A DNA stretch of 64,000 nt from an uncultured Planctomycetaceae bacterium (lineage in GTDB: Bacteria; Planctomycetota; Planctomycetia; Pirellulales; PALSA-1355). Location of the stretch: contig OY969698.1 in assembly GCA_963702015.1 (NCBI GenBank), positions 1,958,839-2,022,838 of the forward strand, in the 5' to 3' direction. Shown here piece after piece: positions 1,489 to 53,873 of this stretch. The translations under genes and the position numbers were made by a program. A model generated the notes under the pieces. That model had not been told where the DNA came from and did no database searches. It saw only the letters and a list, made by a program, of their open reading frames with translations. The first letter of the stretch is position 1; the number at the start of each line of letters is the position of its first letter.

Positions 1489-1716
1489 ATGGGTATTTTG
1501 ACGCAACAACAGGGCACGAAGTACGTCATTTCTTCCGATTCCAGCGCGGCAGAGGCGCCAACCAAGCGCCGCCGCGGAAAACCATTCGCCACCTACGAAG
1601 TCTGGACCGGCGAAACGTGGTCGGCCGCCGGTGCCGACGCCACGATCTTCGAGTCGCTTGACGATGCCGATCGGTACGTCAAAGAGAACTATGCTCGTCT
1701 CAGCGGCAAACGCTGA
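1489..1716 (+). CDS. hypothetical small protein
   Basis: Small ORF. The ATG at 1489 is preceded by AAGGA; no recognisable domain. Confidence 0.25.
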   Translation: MGILTQQQGTKYVISSDSSAAEAPTKRRRGKPFATYEVWTGETWSAAGADATIFESLDDADRYVKENYARLSGKR

Positions 1717-1992
1717 GGAGCCGGCCCGTGGAGGATGCGTGTTGGCCCCGTCGCTGGGCTTGCCGCTCCACAAGCCTCGCGTTGAGCGAGGTCGCGTGAT
1801 GGGCGGCGGATGGTCGCGGGCGGTTTGGCCGACCGCAAAAAAACCATCTTCCGCGCCGCCGATCGGCTCCTTGCAACTGCCGACGCCGCCGATTTTCTTT
1901 CGGGGGGCGATTTTCCCCATGTAACGCAGTTGCCACTGGGGCGACTATAAAGGGTGTGACTTGGGAATCTAGCACGCCCGATCGACGCGTTC

Positions 1993-2505
1993 ATGAACGA
2001 TCTCTCGGCGGTCATCGCAGCGCATTCCGACGCGGTTTGGCGCACGGCTTATCGCCTGCTCAATCACCGCGACGATGCGCTCGATTGCTACCAGGAGACC
2101 TTTCTGGCCGCCCTGTACCTTTCCAGCAAAGGCGAAGTGCGGCATTGGCGGACGATGCTGGTCCGGATTGCCACCCGCAGGGCGATCGACCGGCTGAGAC
2201 AACGCTATCAAAGCGCCAAGGAATCCGCCGGGACTGAGGAATTGGCGCGCGGCAGATCGCCCGTCGAGGCTCCCGACGCCCGACTTCACAGTGAAGAACT
2301 GCGAGAGCAGGTTCGCCGGGCGCTCGGCGCGCTTCCTGCCGAACAGGGCGAAGTTTTTTGGCTGCGGCACATCGAACAATTGAGTGTCGGCGAGGTGGCG
2401 GAGTTGATGGACATCGAAACCGGCCACGTACGCGTCTTGGGGCATCGCGCGGCCGTCGCCTTGCGCAATCCTTGGGCCGTCGCTCGGGCCTACAGCCATT
2501 ACTGA
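1993..2505 (+). CDS. ECF (extracytoplasmic function) RNA polymerase sigma-70 factor
   Basis: 170 aa. Region 2 (YRLLNHRDDALDCYQETFL) and region 4 (LSVGEVAELMDIETGHVRVLGHRAAVALR) signatures are present, and it is followed directly by a membrane anti-sigma-like gene. Confidence 0.8.
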   Translation: MNDLSAVIAAHSDAVWRTAYRLLNHRDDALDCYQETFLAALYLSSKGEVRHWRTMLVRIATRRAIDRLRQRYQSAKESAGTEELARGRSPVEAPDARLHSEELREQVRRALGALPAEQGEVFWLRHIEQLSVGEVAELMDIETGHVRVLGHRAAVALRNPWAVARAYSHY

Positions 2506-2514
2506 AAAAATGCC

Positions 2515-4806
2515 ATGAGTACAGACAATTCCGAAGATCCGATCGCACAGGTTGTCAGTGCATTCGACCAAATGCGGGTGCCACCGGGACCGTCGATGCT
2601 CGAGACGATCGATTTGTTGCGCGAGCGGGTGCCGGCCGTGCTGGAAGCCGCCAGCCGATCCGAAATTGCGCCGGTCGACCAGAAGCGAAATGCTGGTCGC
2701 GGAAGCGCACTCGTGCGACGGCCATTGTCTCGATTAGCGCTGGCCGCGGCCGCCTGTCTGGCGATTGTCGTCGCGTGGTGGTTGATTCCGGGCGGGCAAC
2801 CGGCGGCCCAGGCCTTCCACATGTTTGCCGACGCGCTCGTCGATGCCAAAAGCGCGGAATTTCAGTTGGAGGTGGATATCCCTGGGCACGGAATTCAGAG
2901 GTTCCAAAGTTACTATCTTGCTCCGGGAAAAATGCGCAGTGAGATGACGGGAGTCGTCAGCATTGCGGACTTGAAGACCGGCAAGACCGTAAACCTGCTT
3001 CCCGAGCAGAAGACGGCGCTGGTCATCACCGTAAAAAATGTGCCCAGCGAACCCGGCAGACCACGCTTCGATGACTTTTTCGAGGAGCTGCGAGATTTAC
3101 TCTCGAAGCGCCGTGACACGCTGGACGAGGGGGTCAAGCAACTGGGCGAAAAGGAGATCGACGGCCGCCGCGCCATTGGTTTCCGCTGCGAATCGCCCGT
3201 GGCAACGGTGATCCTGTGGGGCGACCCAGCCACTGGGTTGCCGTTGCTGGTCGAGTCCGTATCGACTGGCATTCCGCACATCGAAGTCAAGCTGTCGCGT
3301 TTTTTTTTCAACGGGCATCTCGAACCGGCGTTGTTCGACACCACGCCGCCAGCCGACTACATAGTCCGGGAGTTCGATCTCGACTTTTCGAAACCGACCG
3401 AGACGGCGCTGATCGACGGGTTGCGCATGAGTGCCGATTTGAACGACGGAGTGTTCGCCGACAACCTGGACTCAGCCAACGACTATGCGCTCCTTCTTAA
3501 ATCGCCGAAGAACGCAATCGGCGACAAGCAGGACAAATTGCGGGACATGGCGCCCGAGCTGATGACGATCGGCCGCGGAATGACCTTTGCCGCCGAGCTT
3601 CCCGAGTCGGCCGACGCGCACTATGCCGGCAAGGGGGTCAAGCACGGCGAGCCGAATCGCCCGATCTTCTGGTACAAGCCCGAGGGTGCGAAGGCGTACC
3701 GTGTCATCTACGCCGACCTCTCGGTCAAAGAGGCGGAGAGTGCGCCCGCGGTCGTCACGGGGCCGTTATTGGCCGCCGGGCAGTCGACGTTTCAGGCGTT
3801 CAACATGTTTGCCGAGGCGATTGTCGATGCCAAGAGCGCCACGTTTGACATGGAGGCCAGCATCGCCGGACAGGGAAAGCAGGTGGGCAAAAGCTATTAT
3901 CTCGCTCCCGGCAAAATGCGGACCACGGCGAAGGGAATGGTCATGGTATTCGACACCAAGGCGGGAAAGATGGTGTTCCTCAGCGACAAGCAGAAAACGG
4001 CTGTCGTGACGAACATAAAAAACCGGCCCCACGAGCCCGGCAAACCACAAATGGACGACGTTTTCGAGCAGATGCGAGATTTGCTCTCCAAGAGCCGTGA
4101 CGCAAAAGAAGACGAGTTCAAGCAACTGGGTGAAAAGGAAATTGACGGCCGCCGCGCGATCGGTTTCAGCTACGCCACGGCCGCGCAATCGCTGACGCTG
4201 TGGGGCGATCCGACCACTGGGTTGCCGGTGCTGGTTGAGATGGTATTCAGCGGCAAACCACGTTCTGAAGTCACAATGTCGCACTTTGAGCTGAACGAGA
4301 AGCTCGATCCGGCGCTGTTCGACACCACGCCGCCTGCCCACTACAAGGTTCAGACCTTCGACTTCGACGCCTCGAAACCGACCGAGGCCACCCTGATCGA
4401 GGCGCTGCGCTTGGCCGCCGATGCGAACGACGGAGTGTTTATCAACAATCTGGACATGGCCGGCATGATGGCGGTCATGATCAAATACGCCGAAAAATCG
4501 GTCCGCGACAGAAAAGACAAATCGCAGGGTGTTCCACCCGAGGTGATGGACACGGCCATGACGATTGGCCGCGGGATCAGCTTTGCCCTGGAGGAACTGC
4601 CAGAAACGGCCGACGCGCATTACGCCGGCAAAGGGGTCAAGCTCGACGAATCCGATCGCCCGATCTTCTGGTACAAGCCCGAGGGCTCCAAGACCTACCG
4701 CGTGATCTATGCCGACCTCTCGGTCAAAGAGGCGGAAGCCGCGCCCGAAATCGCCGGAGCCATGCGATTGGAGAAGACCAGGCCGGCGGAGAAGGAAGAG
4801 AAGTAG
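2515..4806 (+). CDS. putative anti-sigma factor with one transmembrane helix and two tandem extracytoplasmic sensor modules
   Basis: 763 aa, 10 bp downstream of the ECF sigma. Short cytoplasmic N-terminus, then one transmembrane segment (LALAAAACLAIVVAWWL), then two ~330-aa modules that are about 50% identical to each other. Confidence 0.65.
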   Translation: MSTDNSEDPIAQVVSAFDQMRVPPGPSMLETIDLLRERVPAVLEAASRSEIAPVDQKRNAGRGSALVRRPLSRLALAAAACLAIVVAWWLIPGGQPAAQAFHMFADALVDAKSAEFQLEVDIPGHGIQRFQSYYLAPGKMRSEMTGVVSIADLKTGKTVNLLPEQKTALVITVKNVPSEPGRPRFDDFFEELRDLLSKRRDTLDEGVKQLGEKEIDGRRAIGFRCESPVATVILWGDPATGLPLLVESVSTGIPHIEVKLSRFFFNGHLEPALFDTTPPADYIVREFDLDFSKPTETALIDGLRMSADLNDGVFADNLDSANDYALLLKSPKNAIGDKQDKLRDMAPELMTIGRGMTFAAELPESADAHYAGKGVKHGEPNRPIFWYKPEGAKAYRVIYADLSVKEAESAPAVVTGPLLAAGQSTFQAFNMFAEAIVDAKSATFDMEASIAGQGKQVGKSYYLAPGKMRTTAKGMVMVFDTKAGKMVFLSDKQKTAVVTNIKNRPHEPGKPQMDDVFEQMRDLLSKSRDAKEDEFKQLGEKEIDGRRAIGFSYATAAQSLTLWGDPTTGLPVLVEMVFSGKPRSEVTMSHFELNEKLDPALFDTTPPAHYKVQTFDFDASKPTEATLIEALRLAADANDGVFINNLDMAGMMAVMIKYAEKSVRDRKDKSQGVPPEVMDTAMTIGRGISFALEELPETADAHYAGKGVKLDESDRPIFWYKPEGSKTYRVIYADLSVKEAEAAPEIAGAMRLEKTRPAEKEEK
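2812..4806 (+). repeat. intragenic tandem duplication: sensor module copy 1 (~2812..3789) and copy 2 (~3790..4806) of the anti-sigma gene
   Basis: Module 1 (FHMFADALVDAKSAEF ... YRVIYADLSVKEAESAP) aligns end to end with module 2 (FNMFAEAIVDAKSATF ... YRVIYADLSVKEAEAAP). Confidence 0.7.
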
Positions 4807-4907
4807 CCCAGACGCCAGACGTTTGTCGAGCGCCGGCGAACCCGCTACGGTGATTGCAGCGAGGCTGGCCGATCGATCGACAGGCCGATTCATTCGAGGG
4901 GCAGAAC

Positions 4908-6902
4908 ATGATGCCGGTAAGATCGCGTGCTTATCGAGTGGCAATCGTCATCATCGCACTCTGCGTGGCCTTTGCCGGCGAGACTGCCCTGGCCGACGAT
5001 CCGGTGAGCCAGGATGTTTGGCATGTCGTCTCGTCCGGTGACGTTCCCTTCCAGTCGATGCACACGACCCGTGAGTCGCGGGCGGATGGCACGAGGCGAA
5101 TCGTGGAGGACGTGCGGGCATTGATCGATCTATTCGGGCAACGACAAGAAATACGCCAGACGTTCGATTGTGTCGTCAGCGCGACGTTGGAACCGATCTC
5201 TTGCCGCTATGAGTCGCACGGACTGTCCGGCGAGGTGGCGGCGCTGGGCGAGGTTGAAGACAAAGAGTTTGTGATCACCTTCCGGCGCGGTGATTTCACG
5301 CTCAAGCGACGCATTCCGCTGGCGGACAAACCGATTCTGAGTCTGTGCCTTGCCGATGCGCTGGCCGCGCAAGACCAATTGACCGAGGCAAGCCAACTGG
5401 CGATTGTCGACAGCGATTCTTGGACGCCACGGCACGCGACTGCCCGGCGGTTGGCTGATGCTGATGGCCTGTCACGCTGGAGCGTCGTTTACGACGACGG
5501 CGTCGGCAACGGTGTCTGGTCGCTGTCGCCAGACGGCCCGTTCGATCGCGTGGACCTTTCGACGCCCAGTCGGCGGATTCGACGCGCCACTGCGGACGTG
5601 GCAAACGAACTGAAATACTGGACGCCGACGGACCGCGAAATGCTCGTGTTTCCGGCGTATCGTGATCTCCCTTTTCCCGAGCGATTGCGGTCGATCACCG
5701 TGCGGATGCGCTGGCGCGGTACGCCGATCGAACAACTCGATCTGGAAGATTCCCGCCAGCGGATTGTCAGCCAAACGCATGACCAGGATCGCCACGAGGT
5801 CATATTGCGGCTCGGGCAGCCGGCCGCAATTGATGCGGCGCCGCGGCTGCCGGTTACCGATGCCGCGTTAGCACCCTGCCTAGCCGAAGAGACGTTTATC
5901 TGCCCGAACGATCCGACGATTCGCTCTCAGGCGCGCAAGTGGACGACCGGCAGCGAGACGACGCTCGACACGATCGGCCGATTGAGCCAGGAGGTGTTCA
6001 GATACCTCGACGGAGGCGAGATGATCGCCGAAACGCTCTCCGGCCCGGAAGTGCTGGCCTGTCGCAAAGGGAAATGCTCGGAGTTCACCACGCTGTTGGC
6101 CTCGCTGGCCCGATCGGTCGGCGTGCCAACACGCGTGGCCCTCGGGATGCGGCTCGTCGCCGGTCGTTGGATGGGTCATATGTGGTGCGAAGCGTGGGTC
6201 GGGCGCTGGATACCTGTCGATGCGTCAACGAACGAAGTCGGCGGATCGCCGGCGCTGTTAAAACTGACGCATAGCGAAACGACGCTGGGAACGCAAAACG
6301 TCCGTTGGGCTTTGGCCGAAAGCCTCGAGCTGGAAATTATCGACGTCGAACGTGGCGCAGAGCCCGACCTGGCCATGACCACGGGCATCGTGCGGCAGAC
6401 CTATACCAATGCCGGCCACGCCTGCCGGATCACGGCGCCCGGCGCGGACTGGAAGCTCGAAGACAAATCAACGCCTGGTGTCGTACTGATTCAATTCAAG
6501 GCGCCCGGTGAATTCAAGGATGACGAGCCGCTGATTCATTTCGTGGCCTTCGGCCTGCCGACGCGGATTGATCCTGCAATCCTGGTGAACGTCCGCAAAG
6601 CCCGATTCGCTTCGCTGTACCAGGCCTTCGAGGTGCTCGTGGACGAGAAGCGGCCGATCGGCGCAATGAACGGCCGGCAATTCGTGTTTCGCCGCGACGA
6701 TTCGAAGAAGCCGGGCCGAAAGATCAAGACCACGGAATTCCTCTGGACAGGCGATCGCTCGGGCTATCTTCTTAATCTGATCGCCGCGGAGCCGACGCAC
6801 GACGCAGTGCTGGCGCAATTCGACGCCCTGCTTGCCAGCTTCGAGACGGTTGAGCCGGCGGCTAAGGGGTCGAATGAGAAGGCAAAACCGGCGGCGCCGT
6901 GA
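4908..6902 (+). CDS. transglutaminase-like domain protein (secreted)
   Basis: The Met at 4908 is preceded by GAGGGG. Signal peptide present. Transglutaminase core Cys...His...Asp: CRKGKCSEFTTLLASLARSVGVPTRVALG ... GHMWCEAW ... PVDAS. Confidence 0.7.
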   Translation: MMPVRSRAYRVAIVIIALCVAFAGETALADDPVSQDVWHVVSSGDVPFQSMHTTRESRADGTRRIVEDVRALIDLFGQRQEIRQTFDCVVSATLEPISCRYESHGLSGEVAALGEVEDKEFVITFRRGDFTLKRRIPLADKPILSLCLADALAAQDQLTEASQLAIVDSDSWTPRHATARRLADADGLSRWSVVYDDGVGNGVWSLSPDGPFDRVDLSTPSRRIRRATADVANELKYWTPTDREMLVFPAYRDLPFPERLRSITVRMRWRGTPIEQLDLEDSRQRIVSQTHDQDRHEVILRLGQPAAIDAAPRLPVTDAALAPCLAEETFICPNDPTIRSQARKWTTGSETTLDTIGRLSQEVFRYLDGGEMIAETLSGPEVLACRKGKCSEFTTLLASLARSVGVPTRVALGMRLVAGRWMGHMWCEAWVGRWIPVDASTNEVGGSPALLKLTHSETTLGTQNVRWALAESLELEIIDVERGAEPDLAMTTGIVRQTYTNAGHACRITAPGADWKLEDKSTPGVVLIQFKAPGEFKDDEPLIHFVAFGLPTRIDPAILVNVRKARFASLYQAFEVLVDEKRPIGAMNGRQFVFRRDDSKKPGRKIKTTEFLWTGDRSGYLLNLIAAEPTHDAVLAQFDALLASFETVEPAAKGSNEKAKPAAP

Positions 6903-6916
6903 TGTCTCGGGGCTGC

Positions 6917-7177
6917 TCAGCCGGCCTTTCGCACGAGCGATTCCTTTTCAAGTCGCGTCAGGCGCTTGATCGCCAGTTCACGCCGCAGGGCGAGGCTGCG
7001 GCTGTCTTGCGGCTCGTGATAGACCAGAACCACGGGGCGCCGACTGCGGGTGTAGCGCGACGCGGTGCCGGCGCTATGCTGCGAGCAGCGCCGGCTTAAA
7101 TCGTTGGTAATTCCGGTATAAAGCGAGCCGTCGACACATCGCAAGAGATAGACGAACCATAAGCTATCTTTTGGCAT
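6917..7177 (-). CDS. GIY-YIG nuclease family protein (UPF0213/YhbQ-like)
   Basis: 86 aa; WFVYLLRCVDGSLYTGITNDLSRRCSQH is a GIY-YIG signature. Confidence 0.7.
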   Translation of the reverse strand: MPKDSLWFVYLLRCVDGSLYTGITNDLSRRCSQHSAGTASRYTRSRRPVVLVYHEPQDSRSLALRRELAIKRLTRLEKESLVRKAG

Positions 7178-7249
7178 CGGCCCAATCCCTGTTTGGGGGT
7201 TGAAAAGGTCGGCGGAAACTCCATTCCATCAATCGGCAAGAATCGACCC

Positions 7250-8413
7250 ATGAAACCAACGAATCGAATCCTGATGGCGGCCGTACTTGGGTTTTGCACC
7301 CTGGCCTCGACGATTCCGGCAGTTGCCTGCACCGCCTTCCAGTTGCAGGCGCACGACGGAGCCTGGATCTATCTTCGCTCGATGGAATTCGGCTTTCCCT
7401 TCCATTCCGAGGTGCTCATCGTTCCCCGTGGAACCGAATTCACCGGCACGGCTGCCGGCCCGACGCCGGGTCTCAAGTGGCAGGCGAAATACGGCCTGGT
7501 GGGGGCCAACCAAGCCGTGGCCAAGAACCTGGTAGCCGATGGCATGAACGAGCGTGGGCTGGTCGTTGGCATGCTCCTCTTCCCGCGCTACGCCGGCTAT
7601 CCGGCGGCCGATCCGGCCAAGACCGACCGCACGCTGGGAAGCTGGGAAGTGGCCACCTACTTGCTTTCGACCTGCGCCACTTTGGAAGATGCCCGAGCCG
7701 CGTTGACCGACGGGAGCGTACTGGTCTCGAACGCCGAGTTCGCCCCGTTCAGCCAGGTGCTGCCGGTTCACTATTACATTGCCGACGCGAGCGGAGCGGT
7801 GCTGATCGCCGAATATGTCGGTGGCGATCTGCAGTTCCACGACGACCCGTTCGGCATTCTCACCAACTCGCCCGATTTCGTCTGGCAGCAAACCAATCTG
7901 CTGAACTTCGTCAATCTTTCGCCGGTCAACGTCCCCAACGCCGAGCTCGACGGCCGCAAGATCGAGGGTTTTGGGCAGGGGAGCAGGGCGCTCGGTTTGC
8001 CCGGCGATTTCACCCCGCCTTCACGCTTCGTGCGGGCTGCTCTCTTCTCGCACTGGGCGACACCGGGAGCGACCGCCGAAGAGACGGTGCTGGCCGGATT
8101 TCACGTGCTCAACACCTTTGATATTTTTGCGGGGGCGATCCGTGCCAATTCGGCGACTTTGCCTGCCAGCGGCGAAGCCTTTCTCAACTCCAAGACTCCT
8201 GAGATCGTGAACACCGACACAACCGAGTGGACCTTGGCGCACGATCGGACGAATCTCCGCACGTATGTGCGGACTTACGAAAGTCTGTCGATTCAAATGA
8301 TCGATCTGAATAAGATCGACTTTGCGCAGCCCGGCTTGCGGCAGATCGAGCTCGACAAGAAATTCGATCCGGCGGATCTCAGCTCGACGGCCAAACCGCT
8401 CTCGTCGCCCTAA
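7250..8413 (+). CDS. choloylglycine hydrolase / linear amide C-N hydrolase family (Ntn hydrolase), secreted
   Basis: Signal peptide ending ...AVAC, followed directly by the N-terminal nucleophile Cys (CTAFQL) typical of the Ntn-hydrolase CBAH family. Confidence 0.65.
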   Translation: MKPTNRILMAAVLGFCTLASTIPAVACTAFQLQAHDGAWIYLRSMEFGFPFHSEVLIVPRGTEFTGTAAGPTPGLKWQAKYGLVGANQAVAKNLVADGMNERGLVVGMLLFPRYAGYPAADPAKTDRTLGSWEVATYLLSTCATLEDARAALTDGSVLVSNAEFAPFSQVLPVHYYIADASGAVLIAEYVGGDLQFHDDPFGILTNSPDFVWQQTNLLNFVNLSPVNVPNAELDGRKIEGFGQGSRALGLPGDFTPPSRFVRAALFSHWATPGATAEETVLAGFHVLNTFDIFAGAIRANSATLPASGEAFLNSKTPEIVNTDTTEWTLAHDRTNLRTYVRTYESLSIQMIDLNKIDFAQPGLRQIELDKKFDPADLSSTAKPLSSP

Positions 8414-9766: not shown

Positions 9767-10546
9767 TCAGACCTTCGGACGCCGAACCTTGTAGTTGCCT
9801 CGGCTCTCGTCGTACTCCAGCGAGACCAGTGCCTTGGCTTCGATGTCTTCCAACAGCTCCGAGAAGCTTCCGTAGCCGTAATAGCCTTCGTTGAAGCCGG
9901 GAAAGACGCGGCGAATGGCTTGTTTGAGCAGCGAGCCCCATAGCGGGTCGTAATCCTGCTCGACCGAATGGAACACTTCCAACACGCGGTCGAACGCTTC
10001 TTGCTTCTTTTCGTCCTTGGTTTTCGCTTCGGTCGGCTTGCCGTCACGGGCGGGTCCACGGGTTTGCGATTTTTTTGCCACCCGGATCAGATCGTCGTAA
10101 TAGAGAAACTCGTCGCAATTGGCGATCAGCAGGTCGGACGTGGAGCTTTTCACTCCACAGCCTAGCACGCGCTTGTTGTTCTCCTTCAGCTTGGAGACCA
10201 GCGGCGAAAAGTCGCTGTCTCCCGACAGCAGGGCAAAGACGTCGATGTGCTGCTTGGAATAGCAAAGGTCGAGAGCGTCGACCACCATGCGGATGTCGGC
10301 GCTGTTCTTGCCGCTCATTTTCGTCTGCGGAATGTCGATCAGTTCGATCCCTTGGACGTGAAATTCGCGAACGGCGTCCTGGTAATGGCTCCAGTCGCAA
10401 TAGGCACGCTTGTAGACGATGCGCCCTTTCTCCAACAGCCGCTTGAGGACCAACTGAATCTGGAATTGGCCCGCCTTCATGTGACGAACGCCAAGGGCCA
10501 GGTTCTCGAAATCGACAAATACGGCAATCAGTGGTTCTTCAGACAT
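9767..10546 (-). CDS. NYN domain (LabA-like) protein with C-terminal OST-HTH/LOTUS domain
   Basis: N-terminus IAVFVDFENL...YCDW...DVFALLSGDSDFSPLV (NYN/PIN-like); C-terminus with a LOTUS-like helix-turn-helix (DPLWGSLLKQAIRRVFPGFNEGYYGYGSFSELLEDI). Confidence 0.75.
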   Translation of the reverse strand: MSEEPLIAVFVDFENLALGVRHMKAGQFQIQLVLKRLLEKGRIVYKRAYCDWSHYQDAVREFHVQGIELIDIPQTKMSGKNSADIRMVVDALDLCYSKQHIDVFALLSGDSDFSPLVSKLKENNKRVLGCGVKSSTSDLLIANCDEFLYYDDLIRVAKKSQTRGPARDGKPTEAKTKDEKKQEAFDRVLEVFHSVEQDYDPLWGSLLKQAIRRVFPGFNEGYYGYGSFSELLEDIEAKALVSLEYDESRGNYKVRRPKV

Positions 10547-47393: not shown

Positions 47394-47572
47394 TTGGCCT
47401 CCGCTCGCCGTGGCCCTGATTGCAACGCCGTCCGGAAAGCCTATCATGGCGGGGTTCCCCCTTGCTCGCCGGAGGCGGTCGATGCACCGCTCGGTCGCCG
47501 CCGAATGTCGAGCGCATGAGCGGCGGATTCACGTCCCAGCGGTGCCTTCCGTTTTTTCGAGGAGCTTGCGTT

Positions 47573-49009
47573 ATGCTTGGCGAATCAGGCAAAAAAGTGA
47601 CTCCGAAAGAAGTCCTGGCACTGTGTCGCGAAAAGGAAGTCAAATCGGTCGACCTCCGCTTCATGGACTTTCCCGGCCTGTGGCAGCACTTCACCATCCC
47701 GGTCGGCAAGTTGGTCGAGGACGTCTTTGAAGACGGCCTCGGATTCGACGGATCGAGCATCCGCGGCTGGCAGGCGATCAACGAGAGCGACATGCTCGTC
47801 GTTCCCCAGCCTGAGACCGCCTTCATCGATCCCTTCACCGCCATTCCCACGCTGGTGATGATCTGCAACATCCAGGACCCGATCACTCGCGAGGACTATT
47901 CGCGCGATCCGCGCAATGTCGCCCGCAAGGCAGTCAACTATCTCAAGAGCACCGGCATCGCCGACACCTGCTCGGTCGGTCCGGAAGCCGAATTCTTCAT
48001 CTTCGACGACGTCCGCTTCGATCAGAACGCCCACGAGGGCTACTATCACATCGACAGCATCGAAGGCGAATGGAACCGCGGCCGCAAGGAGAACCCGAAC
48101 CTCGCCAACAAGATTCGCTACAAGGAGGGCTATTTCCCCGTTCCGCCCGCCGACCAGATGATGAACATCCGCAACGAGATGATGCAGACCATGATCGAGT
48201 GCGGACTGGACGTCGAAGCCCAGCACCACGAAGTCGCCACCGCCGGCCAGAGCGAAATCGACCTCCGCTTCGACGAGCTGGTCCGCATGGCCGACAAAAT
48301 GATGATCTATAAATACATCATCAAAAACGTCGCCACCAAGTACAACAAAACCGTCACCTTCATGCCCAAGCCGCTCTACGGCGACAATGGATCGGGAATG
48401 CACACCCACATGTCGCTATGGAAGGGGGGCTCGCCGCTGTTTGCGGGATCGGGCTATGCGGGCCTGAGCGACATGGCCATGTACGCCATCGGTGGACTGC
48501 TGCGGCACGCACCGGCCATTCTGGCTTTCAGCAATCCGACGACCAACAGCTACAAGCGGCTGGTGCCGGGCTACGAGGCGCCGGTCAACCTGGCCTATTC
48601 GCAGCGGAACCGGTCGGCCAGTTGCCGTATTCCGATGTACAGCCCCAGCCCCAAGGCCAAGCGGGTCGAGTTCCGCTGTCCCGATCCGAGCTGCAATCCC
48701 TACCTGGCGTTCTCAGCCATGCTGATGGCGATCATCGATGGCGTTCAGAACAAGCTCAGCCCGGGCGAGCCGCTGGATAAGGACATCTATGACCTGGCGC
48801 CGGAAGAGCTGGCCGAAGTGCCCAAGACCCCCGGCTCGTTGGACGAAGCCTTGGCGGCTCTGCGCAGCGATCACGAATTCTTGCTGCGTGGCGACGTCTT
48901 CACGCAAGACGTGGTCGACACCTGGATCTGGTACAAGACGGAAAAAGAAGTCGACGCGATGCGGCTGCGGCCCCATCCCTACGAATTTTGCTTGTACTAC
49001 GACATTTAA
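47573..49009 (+). CDS. glnA: glutamine synthetase type I
   Basis: Met at 47573 with GAGGAG RBS; canonical GSI sequence ([13 protein letters not shown]..., [24 protein letters not shown]). Confidence 0.85.
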
Positions 49010-49030: not shown

Positions 49031-49083
49031 GCCGGCGTGGCGGCACGACTCGATTGAGTCGCGGCCGCGCGCCGGTTTTTTTA
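49031..49083 (+). terminator. GC-rich hairpin plus T-run downstream of glnA, overlapping the stop of the convergent gene
   Basis: ccggcgtggcggcacgactcgattgagtcgcggccgcgcgccgg ttttttt. Confidence 0.4.
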
Positions 49084-49653
49084 TGCGCCGTGGTCGGGCT
49101 GGTAGCAGAGCAAGACGTTCCCGTTGCCGAAAGTGCGCGTGGCGGTCAGCTTCAGGCTGAGCTTGGTTTTGATGCCCTCGAACATCGTTCTGCCCGCGCC
49201 AAGGACAACGGGATTCACCACGAGCTGGAATTCATCGATCAATCCCGCTTCGGCCAATGGTGCGACGATGCTGCCGCTGCCCAAAATCGCCATGCCGGGC
49301 CCGGGCTCTTGTTTCAACCGGCGAATTTCCGCCGCCAAGTCGCCCTGGACGAGCCGGGTATTATTCCATGATGCCTTGTCGAGCGTTTTCGAAAAGACGA
49401 TCTTCGGCGATCGATTGATCCGCTCAGCCACAATCGGATCGTTTTGGGCCGCATGCGGCGTCGGCCAGTAGCTGGCCATCAGCTCATAGGTGATCCGGCC
49501 GAACAAGAGCGTTCCGCCGGAACCGGCATTCTCGGCGACAAAGGCATTCCACTCGGCGTCGCTGGTATCCTTGTGGGCCCAACGGATGTCGCCGCCGGCA
49601 CCGGCAAAGTAACCATCGAGCGTTACCTGATTGAAAACGATCAATTTCCGCAT
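49081..49653 (-). CDS. dihydrofolate reductase family protein (RibD C-terminal domain-like)
   Basis: 190 aa; MRKLIVFNQVTLDGYF... and ...LGSGSIV...LIDEFQLVVNPVVLG are typical of the RibD_C/DHFR-like family. Confidence 0.65.
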   Translation of the reverse strand: MRKLIVFNQVTLDGYFAGAGGDIRWAHKDTSDAEWNAFVAENAGSGGTLLFGRITYELMASYWPTPHAAQNDPIVAERINRSPKIVFSKTLDKASWNNTRLVQGDLAAEIRRLKQEPGPGMAILGSGSIVAPLAEAGLIDEFQLVVNPVVLGAGRTMFEGIKTKLSLKLTATRTFGNGNVLLCYQPDHGA

Positions 49654-49897: not shown

Positions 49898-50431
49898 TTG
49901 AAACCAGGCACAACCGAAGTTCTGGCGTTGCTCCACGAGCATGGCGGGCGGTTGTACGCACTGCTGGTACGACTGACCCTACGCGGGGACGTGGCCGACG
50001 ATCTGCTGCAAGATTTGTTCTGCAAGCTGGTCCAGAATCGACGCTTTGCCGCGGCTGGCGATCCACTGGCTTATGCCAGCCGGGTGGCCATGAATCTGGC
50101 CTTCGACCACCAGCGGCGCCAGCGCCGATCCAGATGCGGCGCGCTGCACGCCGAAGCATTGGCGACCCTGCCCACCTCGCCAATCGGCGACGTGGTGCGG
50201 CGCGAAGAGCTCGAAAGGGTGCTCGATGCGATCGGGCGATTGCCGGCCAATTCGCGGGAAATCATCGTGCTGCGGTACCTTGAGCAACAAGAGTTCGAAG
50301 CGATTGGGCGGGCGCTGGGGAAAACGGCGCACCAGGCCCGGGCGCTATGCCACAAGGCGATGACGCGGCTGCGCCGGCTGCTGGGCGAAAACGAACCGGA
50401 TGACCTCATGAGGAAAAGGTCCGAAGAATGA
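49898..50431 (+). CDS. ECF RNA polymerase sigma-70 factor (second copy)
   Basis: Region 2 DLLQDLFCKL and region 4 SREIIVLRYLEQQEFEAIGRALGKTAHQARALCHKAMTRLR. Confidence 0.8.
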   Translation: MKPGTTEVLALLHEHGGRLYALLVRLTLRGDVADDLLQDLFCKLVQNRRFAAAGDPLAYASRVAMNLAFDHQRRQRRSRCGALHAEALATLPTSPIGDVVRREELERVLDAIGRLPANSREIIVLRYLEQQEFEAIGRALGKTAHQARALCHKAMTRLRRLLGENEPDDLMRKRSEE

Positions 50432-51390
50432 ACCACCACGACAAATCGCGCTTGCTGCTCGACGATTTGGACACATTGGCCCGCTTGCCGATCGACGGAG
50501 TCGCTAGCCGCCGCGCGGTTGAGCGTGCACACGCGGCGGCCGCGGCGCTGGCCCGCGCGCGGCGCACCAAGCCTATGGTCTTGCTCTGCCGGGTAACGTT
50601 GGCAGGCGCGGCGCTGGCGGTCGTGGGCTTGGTCAGCGTTTGGTTCACCCCCTCGCGGGGGACCGATGGGGTCGCCTTTGCCCAGATGCAGCGCGGTGTG
50701 TCACGGGCCAAAACGGCGCAATATGTGCTAAGCAGAACGGTCAGGCTGAAAGACGGAAAGCGCGTCCGGGTCATCTCGCAAGAAAAACGCAAGGTGAGGA
50801 TCCTCGGCGCCCACCAGATGCGCGAAGAAGTCGAGGTCATCCAACCGGGCAGACTAGGGCCGAAGCGCGACAGCTGGATCTATATCCAAAACATGCTGAC
50901 TGGCAAGACGATTTCGCTCGACCCCGATACGAAACAGTACGACGCTTCCAATCTCGTGCTGGGGATCGATCCCGAGAACAGCGAAGTGCACGAGCAACAG
51001 ATCAAAGTAGCGCCGGAGGTCGACTTCTACCGTAAGATCCGCGAAGCGCCGGGCGAGAAGGCGAAGAAATTGCCCGACCGTATGATCGGCGGCCAAGTGG
51101 CGGCCGGGTTCCAGATCGTCGAGCGCGATGAGCGTCCGGCGGGGACCAACACTTGGACCGGGACGTATTGGATCGACCCGCAGACGAAGTTGCCGTTGCG
51201 GATCGAGTTTTCGCGGCGCAGCACCGATCCGACCATGGCCGACAGCGATTCGACGTTGACCGATTTTGTCTTCGACGCCCCGCTCGGGGAGGCGCTCTTC
51301 AGCACCGATCCACCGCCCGGATATCACGAAATCGTGCCGCAGCATCCAGCCGAAAAGCCCGAGAACGAGCCTGCGGAGGAGGCGAAATAG
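50428..51390 (+). CDS. putative anti-sigma factor (single TM, one sensor module homologous to those of 2515..4806)
   Basis: Start overlaps the sigma stop (ATGA). TM helix VLLCRVTLAGAALAVVGLV. C-domain aligns with the tandem modules (TGKTISL / TGKTVNL; YWIDPQTKLPL / LWGDPATGLPL; EALFSTDPPPGY / PALFDTTPPADY). Confidence 0.65.
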   Translation: MNHHDKSRLLLDDLDTLARLPIDGVASRRAVERAHAAAAALARARRTKPMVLLCRVTLAGAALAVVGLVSVWFTPSRGTDGVAFAQMQRGVSRAKTAQYVLSRTVRLKDGKRVRVISQEKRKVRILGAHQMREEVEVIQPGRLGPKRDSWIYIQNMLTGKTISLDPDTKQYDASNLVLGIDPENSEVHEQQIKVAPEVDFYRKIREAPGEKAKKLPDRMIGGQVAAGFQIVERDERPAGTNTWTGTYWIDPQTKLPLRIEFSRRSTDPTMADSDSTLTDFVFDAPLGEALFSTDPPPGYHEIVPQHPAEKPENEPAEEAK

Positions 51391-51435: not shown

Positions 51436-52221
51436 CTACTGCGCCGGCTTCGACTCGACGCCGAAGGGATCTTGAATCACCGCAGCGTCGTCTTTGGGTT
51501 CTTTGGCCATCTTCGCCGATTTGGCCGCCCGAGCCGGCTTTTTCGCGGCGACCAGCGGTTTGGACAGCGTGATCGTCAACTCTTCGGCGAAGGCCTGGCC
51601 CGGCTTGCCGGCAGCCGGCTTGTTGGCGGGATTGTACCAACCGGTGAGCTTCACTCCGTCGCCCTCATGGACAAGGCTAAAGTCGTCCGACGAAAGTTTC
51701 ACCTCGGCGTCTTCGGCAAGCACTCCAAAGATTTTCTTGTTGCCGGCGACGAGCGCGATATCGTGTTCCTTGAGACTGGTGATTTTTGCGCGGATCTCGT
51801 AAGGGCCCGGCGCGGGCTTGGCGACCGGTTTGGCCGTCGGGCTTTTGTCGCCGACGCTGAACAGACCCAAGGCATTCTTGCCTTGTGGCGTGAAGATTTC
51901 GAGTTCCTTGATTTCTTCCTGCAAAGTTCCCTTCTTGTCGATCTCGCCTTCGAAGCGGACGGTCAACCCGTGACGCAGATATCCCGGTTCGGCGGTGCCG
52001 GCAATTTCGATCTTGGTTTGCTCCGGCTTGATTTCGACAAGCCACACGTCCTCGGAGTCTGCAACCTTAACTCGCAGGACTTGATCGGAGACGACGGCGT
52101 CGAGCGTGCCGCTGGCAGTGAGCGCTTCGGCTCCTGGTGGAGTGGCGTTTTGCGCCGCGGCGCGGGGAAGAGTCGCGGCCAAGAGGCCGACGATCGCGAT
52201 GAGTAAGGAGAACGAGCGCAT
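51436..52221 (-). CDS. hypothetical secreted protein
   Basis: Trimmed to the Met before the signal peptide (MRSFSLLIAIVGLLAATLPRAAA); no recognised domain. Confidence 0.5.
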   Translation of the reverse strand: MRSFSLLIAIVGLLAATLPRAAAQNATPPGAEALTASGTLDAVVSDQVLRVKVADSEDVWLVEIKPEQTKIEIAGTAEPGYLRHGLTVRFEGEIDKKGTLQEEIKELEIFTPQGKNALGLFSVGDKSPTAKPVAKPAPGPYEIRAKITSLKEHDIALVAGNKKIFGVLAEDAEVKLSSDDFSLVHEGDGVKLTGWYNPANKPAAGKPGQAFAEELTITLSKPLVAAKKPARAAKSAKMAKEPKDDAAVIQDPFGVESKPAQ

Positions 52222-52638
52222 AAAAGTCCGCCGCTGCTTCAATGATCCGGTGGTTCGACGCGCGAAGTGCTGCCAGGGCCGTTTCAACTACGTTTCAGAA
52301 TACTGCCCTGGCTGGTCGTTTGCCAGACGGGGCGGGGCCGGCTGGCGGCAGAAAGTGGTCACCCCGATCGATCGAAATCGGGGGCGTTGCGGCATGCATT
52401 TTGCCAATACCGGCCTGGGCGACGGGCGCTTCGGGGCCTTTGGCGCCTTTGCTTCCGGCGGGCGTCCGTTTACGTTGATTGGGAACGAGAACTGGGTGTG
52501 GCCGCCAGCCGTAGGCGGCCGGCCGGTGACCGCTGGCGGGTGAGCCCGCCCAGGCAGTGGCATCGGCTGGCGGGCCGTGCCATGGGCCGCCCAAACCGGC
52601 GGCCGCGGCGAATCCTTCAACAACCCGGCGAACGCGAA

Positions 52639-53873
52639 ATGTTGTGGACCGATTATTTACTGTCGTCGATTGCCGCCGCCGGGCCCAAGGATACTGATTT
52701 GCCCTTGGCCAAAGATGCGCGCGAAGTGGCCGAGGCGATCAGCCGCGACGAAACCAAATTGCCGGGCGGCTTGCGGTGGCTGGCCGAATATTCGGTCGCC
52801 GGGAACGAAGTCTGGCGGTTCCTGCTAATGGCCGGGACTGTGCTGGTGATGCTGCTGGTGGGCGCGGGCGCGGATCGGGCTCGAACGGGCCGCTCGCCGC
52901 CTCGACGCGCGGCGGCGCGATCTGTTGGCCGCGATGTGCCGTGGCGCTGGCGCAGGCCACCGGTTTCTTCTTCTTGGTTGTCGGCCTGCGCGTCGGCATC
53001 AACTTTCTGATTCTCAGCGATCGCGTGGCAAACTACACCAGTCTGCTTGGCAGCGTGCTGGTGACGCTGGCGGTCGGCTATGCCGGCTACTGCCTGGTGT
53101 CGGTGGTCGATCATTGGCTGCGCAGAGTCTCGGCCGGTTCCAGCCGGCTCGACGAAATGCTGGTGCCGATGATGTCGACCAGCTTGCGGCTGGCCGTCGC
53201 GATTTTCGTGCTGGTGGAAGTCGCCGCCATTTTCAATCGCCCCATCACGCCGTTGATCGCCGGCTTGGGCGTGGGCGGTTTGGCGATCGGGCTGGCGGCG
53301 CAAGACACGATCAAGAACTTCTTCGGCTCGCTGATGCTCTTTAGCGACCGGCCGTTCGATCTGGGCGACGAAATCAAAGTCGACACGATCGGCGGAACGG
53401 TCGAGTCGGTCGGCTTTCGGTCGACTCGCCTGCGGACGGCCGAAGGCTTTCTGGTGGCCATTTCCAACGGCGAGCTGGCAGGCAAGACGATCGTCAACGT
53501 CAGCAAGCGGCCGAGCCTGTTCCGGCAGTTCAATCTGCCGCTGAGCTACGATCTGCCGCCGGAAAAGCTGGAGCGGGCCGCGGCGATCGTGGCCGAACTG
53601 CTGCGCGACCACGAGGGCTCACGCGCGGCGAATCCGCCTCGCGTGTTCGTCAGCGATTTTACGCCCAGCGCCGTGAACTTGATGATCTCCTATTGGTACT
53701 ATCCTGCCGACCAGTGGCGCTTTCTGGCCTTCAACCAGCGCACGAATCTGGAAATCCTCCGCCGCTTTGCCGCCGAAGAAATTCGTCTGGCCTACCCGAC
53801 CCAAGCGATCCGCCTGCTGCCGGAGGCAACCGCCGAACCGACGCCCGACGCGCCACCGCCCGAGCAGGCGTAA
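52639..53873 (+). CDS. mechanosensitive ion channel family protein (MscS-like), with a frameshift in the 52870-52960 region
   Basis: N-terminal part MLWTDYLLSS...WRFLLMAGTVLVMLLVGAGADRA is in the frame of ORF 52267..53010. The TM and beta-domain part (LVVGLRVGINFLILSDR...FGSLMLFSDRPFDLGDEIKVDTIGGTVESVGFRSTRLRT) is in the frame of ORF 52776..53873. Confidence 0.65.

Follow-up and report, generated by a model that had tools for sequence, protein, structure and literature searches.

An ECF sigma factor gene paired with a probable anti-sigma factor that carries two LolA-like sensor modules in a planctomycete

The sigA/antiA locus

A 64,000-nucleotide (nt) stretch of DNA from an uncultured Planctomycetaceae bacterium (assembly GCA_963702015.1, contig OY969698.1; hereafter the window) contains a gene for an extracytoplasmic function (ECF) sigma factor, sigA, followed by antiA, which encodes a single-pass membrane protein of 763 amino acids (aa) with an internal tandem repeat. 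Each repeat, or module, is composed of a LolA-like N domain and a smaller C domain, and the protein is therefore designated NCNC. A second, simpler pair, sigB/antiB, lies farther along the window. The features of the locus and of its surroundings are collected in Table 1. The system is not of a new kind; antiA is a rare layout within a large, uncharacterised and almost entirely planctomycetal family. New findings are a conserved promoter-like site ahead of sigA and, just past the membrane helix of antiA, an A-x-A|F motif that is nearly invariant. From the gene context and the predicted structure, sigA and antiA are probably a co-transcribed sigma/anti-sigma pair equipped with a LolA-like sensor.

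The product of sigA matches the Pfam profiles Sigma70_r2 (aa 8-71, E 9.6e-10) and Sigma70_r4_2 (aa 104-154, E 8.3e-11), and scores 83 bits against TIGR02937, for which the cut-off is 42.9. It is small, contains Regions 2 and 4, and has neither Region 1.1 nor Region 3, as is characteristic of an ECF factor. An earlier note on the window, made from the sequence without database searches, had identified an ECF sigma gene at this position, and all three profiles agree with that assignment.

Sigma factors of the ECF group are typically encoded directly upstream of the gene for their cognate regulator and transcribed from a promoter that they regulate themselves, in which the -35 box is of the AAC type and the -10 box is CG-rich. 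The start of antiA is located 9 nt past the sigA stop codon. The sequence TGTAAC-N16-CGACTA stands 46 nt ahead of the sigA start codon and occurs only once in the window. Upstream of the orthologous sigma gene in a related metagenome locus, L002 (~5040-5070), the -35 box, the spacing, and the -10 box are identical, and relatives have a version, TGTAAC-N12-CGCGCATTGA, whose distance to the sigma gene is constant across some two dozen related loci, L003-L020 among them. The pentamer GTAAC is present in 30 of 89 upstream regions, compared with the 7% expected. The sequence is thus probably the autoregulatory ECF promoter of sigA, a function assigned from its form and conservation. A scan of the window detected no TGTAAC-N16-CGAC site upstream of sigB or of the transglutaminase-like gene that follows antiA. 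A separate scan of positions 1500-7400 for σ70 promoters and terminators was uninformative, yielding no promoter and fewer terminator-like sites than shuffled sequence.

In many relatives, the promoter-like motif ends only about 10 nt before the start codon, so that very short mRNA leaders, or none, would be expected.

Table 1. Coordinates of the features discussed (positions within the 64,000-nt window)
Feature	Position	Strand	Description
Predicted ECF-type promoter	1920..1947	+	TGTAAC-N16-CGACTA, putatively autoregulatory
sigA	1993..2505	+	170-aa ECF (group 4) sigma-70 family factor; Pfam and NCBIfam matches
antiA	2515..4806	+	763-aa single-pass membrane protein, probable anti-sigma factor, NCNC
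antiA N-terminal segment (aa 1-72)	2515..2730	+	Cytoplasmic, presumed sigma-binding; conserved in subfamily alignment
antiA transmembrane helix (aa ~73-93)	2731..2793	+	The only one; Kyte-Doolittle scan, one segment at aa 69-95
A98-Q99-A100|F101 of antiA	2806..2817	+	Signal-peptidase-like motif, 5 residues past the Pro-Gly-Gly break that follows the helix
N1 (aa 99-285)	2809..3369	+	LolA-like domain of module 1 (AlphaFold2 and Foldseek)
C1 (aa 286-413)	3370..3753	+	Small α/β domain of module 1
N2 (aa 427-613)	3793..4353	+	LolA-like domain of module 2; HMM i-Evalue 3.2e-82
C2 (aa 614-746)	4354..4752	+	Small α/β domain of module 2; HMM i-Evalue 8.8e-54; 63% identical to C1
Transglutaminase-like gene	4854..6902 (likely start ATG 4908)	+	Secreted, putative cysteine protease; PF01841; signal-like N-terminus
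GIY-YIG domain gene	6917-7177	-	Small; back to back with the CBAH gene
CBAH gene	7193-8413	+	Choloylglycine-hydrolase family
NYN/OST-HTH gene	9767-10546	-	
sigB	49898..50431	+	Second ECF sigma factor, 177 aa; Pfam and NCBIfam matches
antiB	50428..51390	+	320-aa single-pass protein; one LolA-like N domain (aa ~83-300), no C domain
Flanking genes	87-719, 754-1302, 47420-49009, 49081-49653, 52776-53873	+, -, +, -, +	DUF488, cupin, glutamine synthetase, RibD_C-type reductase, MscS-type mechanosensitive channel; ordinary

Two domains in each module

When the first part of antiA (aa 1-425) is compared with the second (aa 426-763) by BLASTP, aa 99-413 align with aa 427-746 over 320 columns at 60% identity (E 2e-137), a similarity far beyond chance; at the DNA level the modules are 72% identical. 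The tandem duplication reported in the earlier note is thus real, but the figure of about 50% identity given there was too low. Of the sequence blocks that the note listed as shared, TGKT, WxDPxTxLPL, and ALFxTxPPxxY, all can be located in the three copies present in the window, except that TGKT reads AGKM in module 2. Both modules retain 18 of 18 family-invariant residues, and thus, neither looks decayed.

The note had treated the module as a single domain, possibly LolA/RseB-like. Structure prediction instead divides it in two and places the likeness in the N half only. An AlphaFold2 model of module 1, built from 91 aligned sequences, has a mean predicted local distance difference test score (pLDDT) of 88.3 and a predicted template-modelling score (pTM) of 0.78, and contains 11 strands together with helices. 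In a Foldseek search of the PDB, the best matches were LolA (2w7q, E 4e-9), RseB (2v42, E 6.5e-7), and MucB (6in9, E 1e-5); all of these fall on the N half, and the top 27 matches are all LolA or RseB. The TM-score to LolA reaches 0.64 on the target at a sequence identity of only ~12-15%, and antiA has no match to the Pfam LolA or MucB_RseB profiles. A sub-threshold match of module 2 (aa 533-609) to PF09865, DUF2092, at 20.4 bits (cut-off 21.2), agrees with a LolA-like fold. The model therefore assigns the N domain to this fold, an unclosed antiparallel β-barrel with a helical plug, which typically binds acyl chains or lipids.

The C domain, of about 125 residues, has no confident fold match. 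Modelled alone (pLDDT 82), it shows three to four helices and, after them, a sheet of three strands. Pfam gives no match, the domain lacks a curated profile, and Foldseek returned nothing from the PDB below E 1.8. A type IV pilin-like fold was considered; the domain has neither the hydrophobic N-terminal helix nor the prepilin motif of a pilin N-terminus and is not classed as a pilin here. Each module of antiA would thus be a LolA/RseB-like half-barrel packed against an α/β domain, for which the candidate roles are a spacer or an interaction module.

The second pair, sigB and antiB

The sigB/antiB pair, also pointed out in the earlier note, is indeed a second ECF sigma gene with a single-pass partner. 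The stop codon of sigB and the start of antiB overlap by 4 nt, and antiB has one membrane segment (aa 48-76). The note counted the module three times within the 64 kb. Hidden Markov models (HMMs) of the two module halves show that this count applies to the N domain, which is present three times; the C domain is found twice, both times in antiA. In antiB, only the first ~190 aa of the module, corresponding to the N domain, align with antiA (27% identity, E 2e-13; N-domain HMM E 2e-20), and the C-domain HMM finds no match. antiB belongs to a small family of N-only proteins of 307-337 aa.

An open reading frame of 283 codons on the opposite strand (51436-52287) converges on antiB. Its product has a signal-like N-terminus and a Lys/Ala-rich tail, and no Pfam match.

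A planctomycete family linked to ECF sigma genes

A search of 5.8 billion proteins gave 248 matches. Among the best 120, for which the layouts were tallied, 91 are NC proteins of ~430 aa, 15 are NCCCC, 9 are NCCC, 2 are NCNC, and 1 is NCN. The single NCN entry, P0003, is the NCN-truncated protein of L002 and is counted here as a third NCNC. A profile of the C domain, run against 1.84 billion cluster representatives (50% identity), gave 1,276 matches at E ≤ 0.001; this domain follows an N domain in 70 of the 72 full-length matches listed, in 1 to 5 copies, and the matches listed also include an NNC protein and what is probably a fragment of an NCNC protein (P0296). Overall, the family comprises N, NC, and NCC to NCCCCC proteins, NC proteins to which a DUF1559 domain has been added, and, rarely, NCNC proteins. 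The latter are antiA itself, P0002 (locus L001), P0003, and possibly P0296. Thus, the view of the earlier note that duplication of the sensor is unusual holds for the whole module, but repetition of a part of the sensor, the C domain, is common.

Genomic context was surveyed in 82 loci, 80 of which came from a scan of one genome per species; L001 and L002 were added to these. Nearly all of the 80 are metagenome-assembled genomes of Planctomycetota, and the closest named relatives of sigA/antiA belong to the Pirellulales. An ECF-type sigma gene lies directly upstream, on the same strand, in 91 of the 100 N-domain genes in these loci; 6 of the others are at contig edges and 3 have no such gene, so that the linkage holds for 91 of the 94 testable genes. 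A search of the literature on LolA-like or DUF2092/DUF4367 anti-sigma factors, and on this family in Planctomycetes, found no description of it.

Several of the loci, among them L019, L046, L057, and L058, contain two or three consecutive pairs of a sigma gene and an NC partner gene in tandem.

The N-terminus of antiA

The single membrane segment of antiA places ~70 residues in the cytoplasm and ~670 outside the membrane. The cytoplasmic residues are conserved across the ~430-aa subfamily and would be expected to contain the site of sigma binding. Several results weigh against this assignment. Neither Pfam, NCBIfam, nor a profile search of PDB sequences gave an anti-sigma match for the N-terminal 98 aa, and with a profile of this segment nothing in the PDB scored below E 1. 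The absence of a recognizable sigma-binding domain from the 763-aa protein is the outcome that the earlier note had named as counting against its reading. In addition, the N-termini of 24 subfamily members have no Pfam match, and scans of individual members with Pfam and NCBIfam gave only sub-threshold noise (DotU, FxsA, CU044_5270). The best score, 15 bits to the "antisigma" profile NF052375, is far from the cut-off of 100 and falls over the membrane region (aa 36-91 in the 98-aa segment, aa 36-112 when the whole protein is scanned). The zinc motif HxxxCxxC is absent from aa 1-72, antiA being of the subfamily with the shorter cytoplasmic segment. Finally, when the antiA subfamily is aligned with zf-HC2-type N-termini by hhalign, only the juxtamembrane and membrane region aligns (probability 94%).

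Sigma binding by antiA is instead suggested by the gene context and by its relatives. NCCCC proteins, whose extracytoplasmic domains are the same as those of antiA, begin with a canonical zf-HC2 domain (aa 8-42, E 9e-8) that includes the HxxxCxxC motif. The sigma/anti-sigma reading of the earlier note thus draws strong support from the near-constant sigma linkage and from the zinc-finger relatives, but none from a profile of the antiA N-terminus itself. On balance, it is quite likely that antiA is an anti-sigma factor.

An Arg-rich juxtamembrane motif is found at aa ~60-72 of antiA (window ~2692-2730), reading GREIMRRPxPRL in the NC type and WRWIMRSPVSR in the NCCCC type. It is the only part of the N-terminus that the two subfamilies have in common.

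A different role for antiA would be that of a membrane-anchored, LolA-like carrier or chaperone of lipoproteins or lipids, whose gene merely happens to come first in the sigma regulon and is co-transcribed with sigA. Such a role would fit the source annotations, in which family members are named "outer membrane lipoprotein-sorting protein" or "LolA", the silence of the anti-sigma profiles, and a fold match that is somewhat better to LolA than to RseB. It does not account for the near-universal position of these genes directly downstream of a sigma gene, often with overlapping stop and start codons, or for the conservation of a ~70-aa cytoplasmic segment, and it sits poorly with relatives in which the same periplasmic domains are joined to a zf-HC2 N-terminus. 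Furthermore, tandem arrays of sigma and partner genes, as in L019 and L057, are typical of paralogous signalling pairs and not of housekeeping carriers. A carrier role in place of a regulatory one is thus very unlikely.

Origin of the double module

The duplication is conserved in relatives. The proteins of the two related metagenome loci, L001 (55% identity) and L002 (44%), are also NCNC, and both loci have the same gene order: the sigma gene, the NCNC gene, a GIY-YIG gene on the opposite strand, and a CBAH gene. The three proteins share the junction …ADLSVK(E/D)A…LLAA/LLVA…(S/T)FQAF…, whose LLAA resembles a leftover terminal part of the membrane helix.

The alternative that the double module is a recent tandem duplication within the gene, or an artefact of assembly, and has no functional meaning, starts from the arrangement of the modules, which lie side by side, in frame, and keep the same order. 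Their divergence, given above, is too great for this idea. Module 1 is closer to a single-module protein, P0004 (69% identity), and module 2 is closer to P0006 (67%) than the modules are to each other (60%), and the grouping of the two antiA modules was recovered in 0 of 200 bootstrap replicates of a neighbour-joining tree. Moreover, layout, junction, and synteny are the same in L001 and L002, which at 44-55% identity are not from the organism of the window, and every family-invariant residue has been kept in both modules. A recent or artefactual origin is therefore extremely improbable.

In the same tree, module 1 of antiA groups with P0004 in 98% of replicates, the two first modules of L001 and L002 group together in 100%, and their two second modules in 88%. 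This pairing of first with first and second with second modules between L001 and L002, together with the shared junction, speaks against an independent duplication in each lineage, an idea that was therefore rejected. NCNC is inferred to have arisen once, long ago. One route would be an internal duplication whose starting point was within the membrane helix; the other, a fusion of partner genes. In the latter case, two neighbouring paralogous partner genes would have been joined and the sigma gene between them lost; tandem arrays of sigma/partner pairs such as those noted above could have given a fused gene by deletion. P0004 is encoded in a related region, L083, beside the same GIY-YIG and hydrolase genes; if the weakly supported grouping of the first modules is correct, module 2 was lost afterwards in the lineage of P0004.

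The deep nodes that unite all first or all second modules are weak (31-40% bootstrap). The NCNC genes of both relatives are interrupted by frameshifts, in L001 at ~1016-1020 and in L002 at several places between 3689 and 7950, so that NCNC genes outside the window are not certain to be intact. These may be errors of assembly or sequencing; the alternative is that the genes are real pseudogenes.

The A-x-A|F motif and a proposed mechanism

Just outside the membrane, antiA contains the sequence A98-Q99-A100|F101, which resembles a signal peptidase site. The motif is near-invariant in the family: Ala is found at -3 in 84 of 91 sequences and at -1 in 89, and Phe is found at +1 in 89. Three subfamily versions are seen, AQA|F in the antiA type, AFA|D in the NCCCC type, and AFA|Q in antiB (VAFAQ, window ~50680-50695). 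At the start of module 2, all three NCNC proteins have a degenerate FQA. Signal peptidase performs the site-1 cut in RsiV (PMC4183432, PMC6066255) and in RsiP (PMC8844934). The constancy of the motif, and its place behind the membrane helix and a Pro-Gly break, make signal peptidase a candidate for the initial cleavage of antiA as well.

The A-x-A sequence has a second explanation that tells against such a cut: in the AlphaFold2 model it also starts the first helix of the LolA-like domain. The first helix of mature LolA likewise starts right after an A-x-A site. The motif could then be the vestige of an ancestor's signal peptide and not a working cleavage site.

A mechanism can be proposed by analogy with known systems. 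In the resting state, antiA would be held by its one membrane helix and its ~70 cytoplasmic residues would keep sigA inactive. A hydrophobic molecule of the envelope would bind the LolA-like domain or domains, as is inferred from RseB and MucB, and binding would alter the exposure of the membrane-proximal region. antiA would then be cut first outside the membrane, with signal peptidase as the candidate enzyme, and subsequently within it, and the sigA thus released would activate its own promoter. This stepwise proteolysis is a tentative proposal, possible though somewhat doubtful, and the assignment of the first cut to signal peptidase is more doubtful still.

A more far-reaching idea is that the whole family consists of anti-sigma factors derived from a LolA-like carrier, whose uncleaved signal peptide became the membrane anchor and whose A-x-A sequence became a site for ligand-gated signal peptidase. 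Such proteins might signal that the transport of lipoproteins or lipids across the unusual envelope of planctomycetes is disturbed, and in antiA the two modules might read two different ligands, or one ligand at two periplasmic depths, while acting on a single sigma factor. As a whole this scenario is speculative and quite unlikely to be correct.

Comparison with known systems

The nearest functional parallels are RseA/RseB with σE in E. coli and MucA/MucB with AlgU in Pseudomonas. Like antiA, these couple a single-pass anti-sigma factor to an ECF sigma factor and use a LolA-like periplasmic domain in sensing, and it is to the structures of RseB (2v42) and MucB (6in9) that the N domain of antiA matches. 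Both RseB and MucB guard the anti-sigma factor as lipid sensors of LolA-like fold, and lipid or lipopolysaccharide signals act through them (PMC7400510). The arrangement is different, however. In RseA/RseB and MucA/MucB the LolA-like domain is a separate protein, whereas in antiA it is fused directly after the membrane helix. antiA has no RseA-like periplasmic tail, and its N-terminus matches neither RseA_N nor zf-HC2. In addition, the LolA-like domain of antiA precedes a small domain of another kind, and the whole unit is present twice.

RsiV and RsiP, which regulate σV and σP in Bacillus, are also single-pass proteins that have an A-x-A site immediately beyond the membrane. The mechanism is known from RsiV and RsiP (PMC4183432, PMC6066255, PMC8844934); in antiA, a putative ligand-binding domain outside the membrane could likewise control access to the site. 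Their sensing domains are unrelated to those of antiA: RsiV binds lysozyme, and RsiP responds to β-lactams via penicillin-binding proteins. Moreover, the host of antiA is a diderm planctomycete, and cleavage of antiA is only predicted.

The LolA carrier itself has the same fold as the N domain, as judged by the Foldseek match given above. antiA departs from it in being anchored in the membrane, in having a conserved cytoplasmic extension, in lacking a Pfam LolA match, and in belonging to a family whose genes are paired with an ECF sigma gene. antiA itself belongs to the uncharacterised NC/NCCCC family of planctomycetes, having in common with it both types of domain, N and C, as well as the membrane and juxtamembrane motif and the link to sigma genes. 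In most of these proteins a single N domain precedes 1 to 5 C domains, whereas antiA repeats the whole module.

ECF sigma/anti-sigma pairs are the main means by which many bacteria sense their envelope. The double module alone would be an architectural curiosity. The family as a whole fuses an RseB-like lipid-sensor fold straight onto a probable anti-sigma factor, and its layouts, from N and NC up to NCCCCC and NCNC, make it a clean, testable case of sensor-domain shuffling. The predicted promoter, the candidate cleavage motif, and the two paralogous sensor modules provide handles for experiments.

Neighbouring genes

The gene downstream of antiA encodes, as the earlier note had it, a secreted transglutaminase-like protein. 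It matches Transglut_core (PF01841) at aa 360-457 (E 2.2e-15; 57.3 bits, cut-off 23) and has the triad Cys408, His442, and Asp456 in the motifs GKC, GH, and PVD. The hydrophobic, signal-peptide-like N-terminus begins at ATG 4908, which is the more likely start.

The note went on to call this gene a plausible member of the regulon of sigA. A true partnership, with the enzyme as an effector or as the generator of the signal, would agree with two facts: the gene follows antiA after 47-101 nt in the same orientation, the + strand of that gap having no terminator-like hairpin, and its product is secreted into the compartment that holds the sensor modules. The comparative data do not bear this out. 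The gene is absent from L001, L002, and L083, in which unrelated or opposite-strand genes follow the anti-sigma gene, and tblastn finds a match in 0 of the 82 family loci. Homologues of 50-56% identity in three other genomes (L086-L088) have no sigma/anti-sigma neighbour, and, as noted above, the promoter motif is missing upstream. A partnership is thus unlikely; the gene is a lineage-specific neighbour, whose transcription from the sigA promoter would be read-through at most. The idea that it is an inserted island was also considered and has no compositional support, its GC content being unremarkable.

Beyond it lie the GIY-YIG and CBAH genes, whose synteny with the sigma/partner pair extends to L001, L002, and L083; the NYN/OST-HTH gene is also conserved in L001 and L083.

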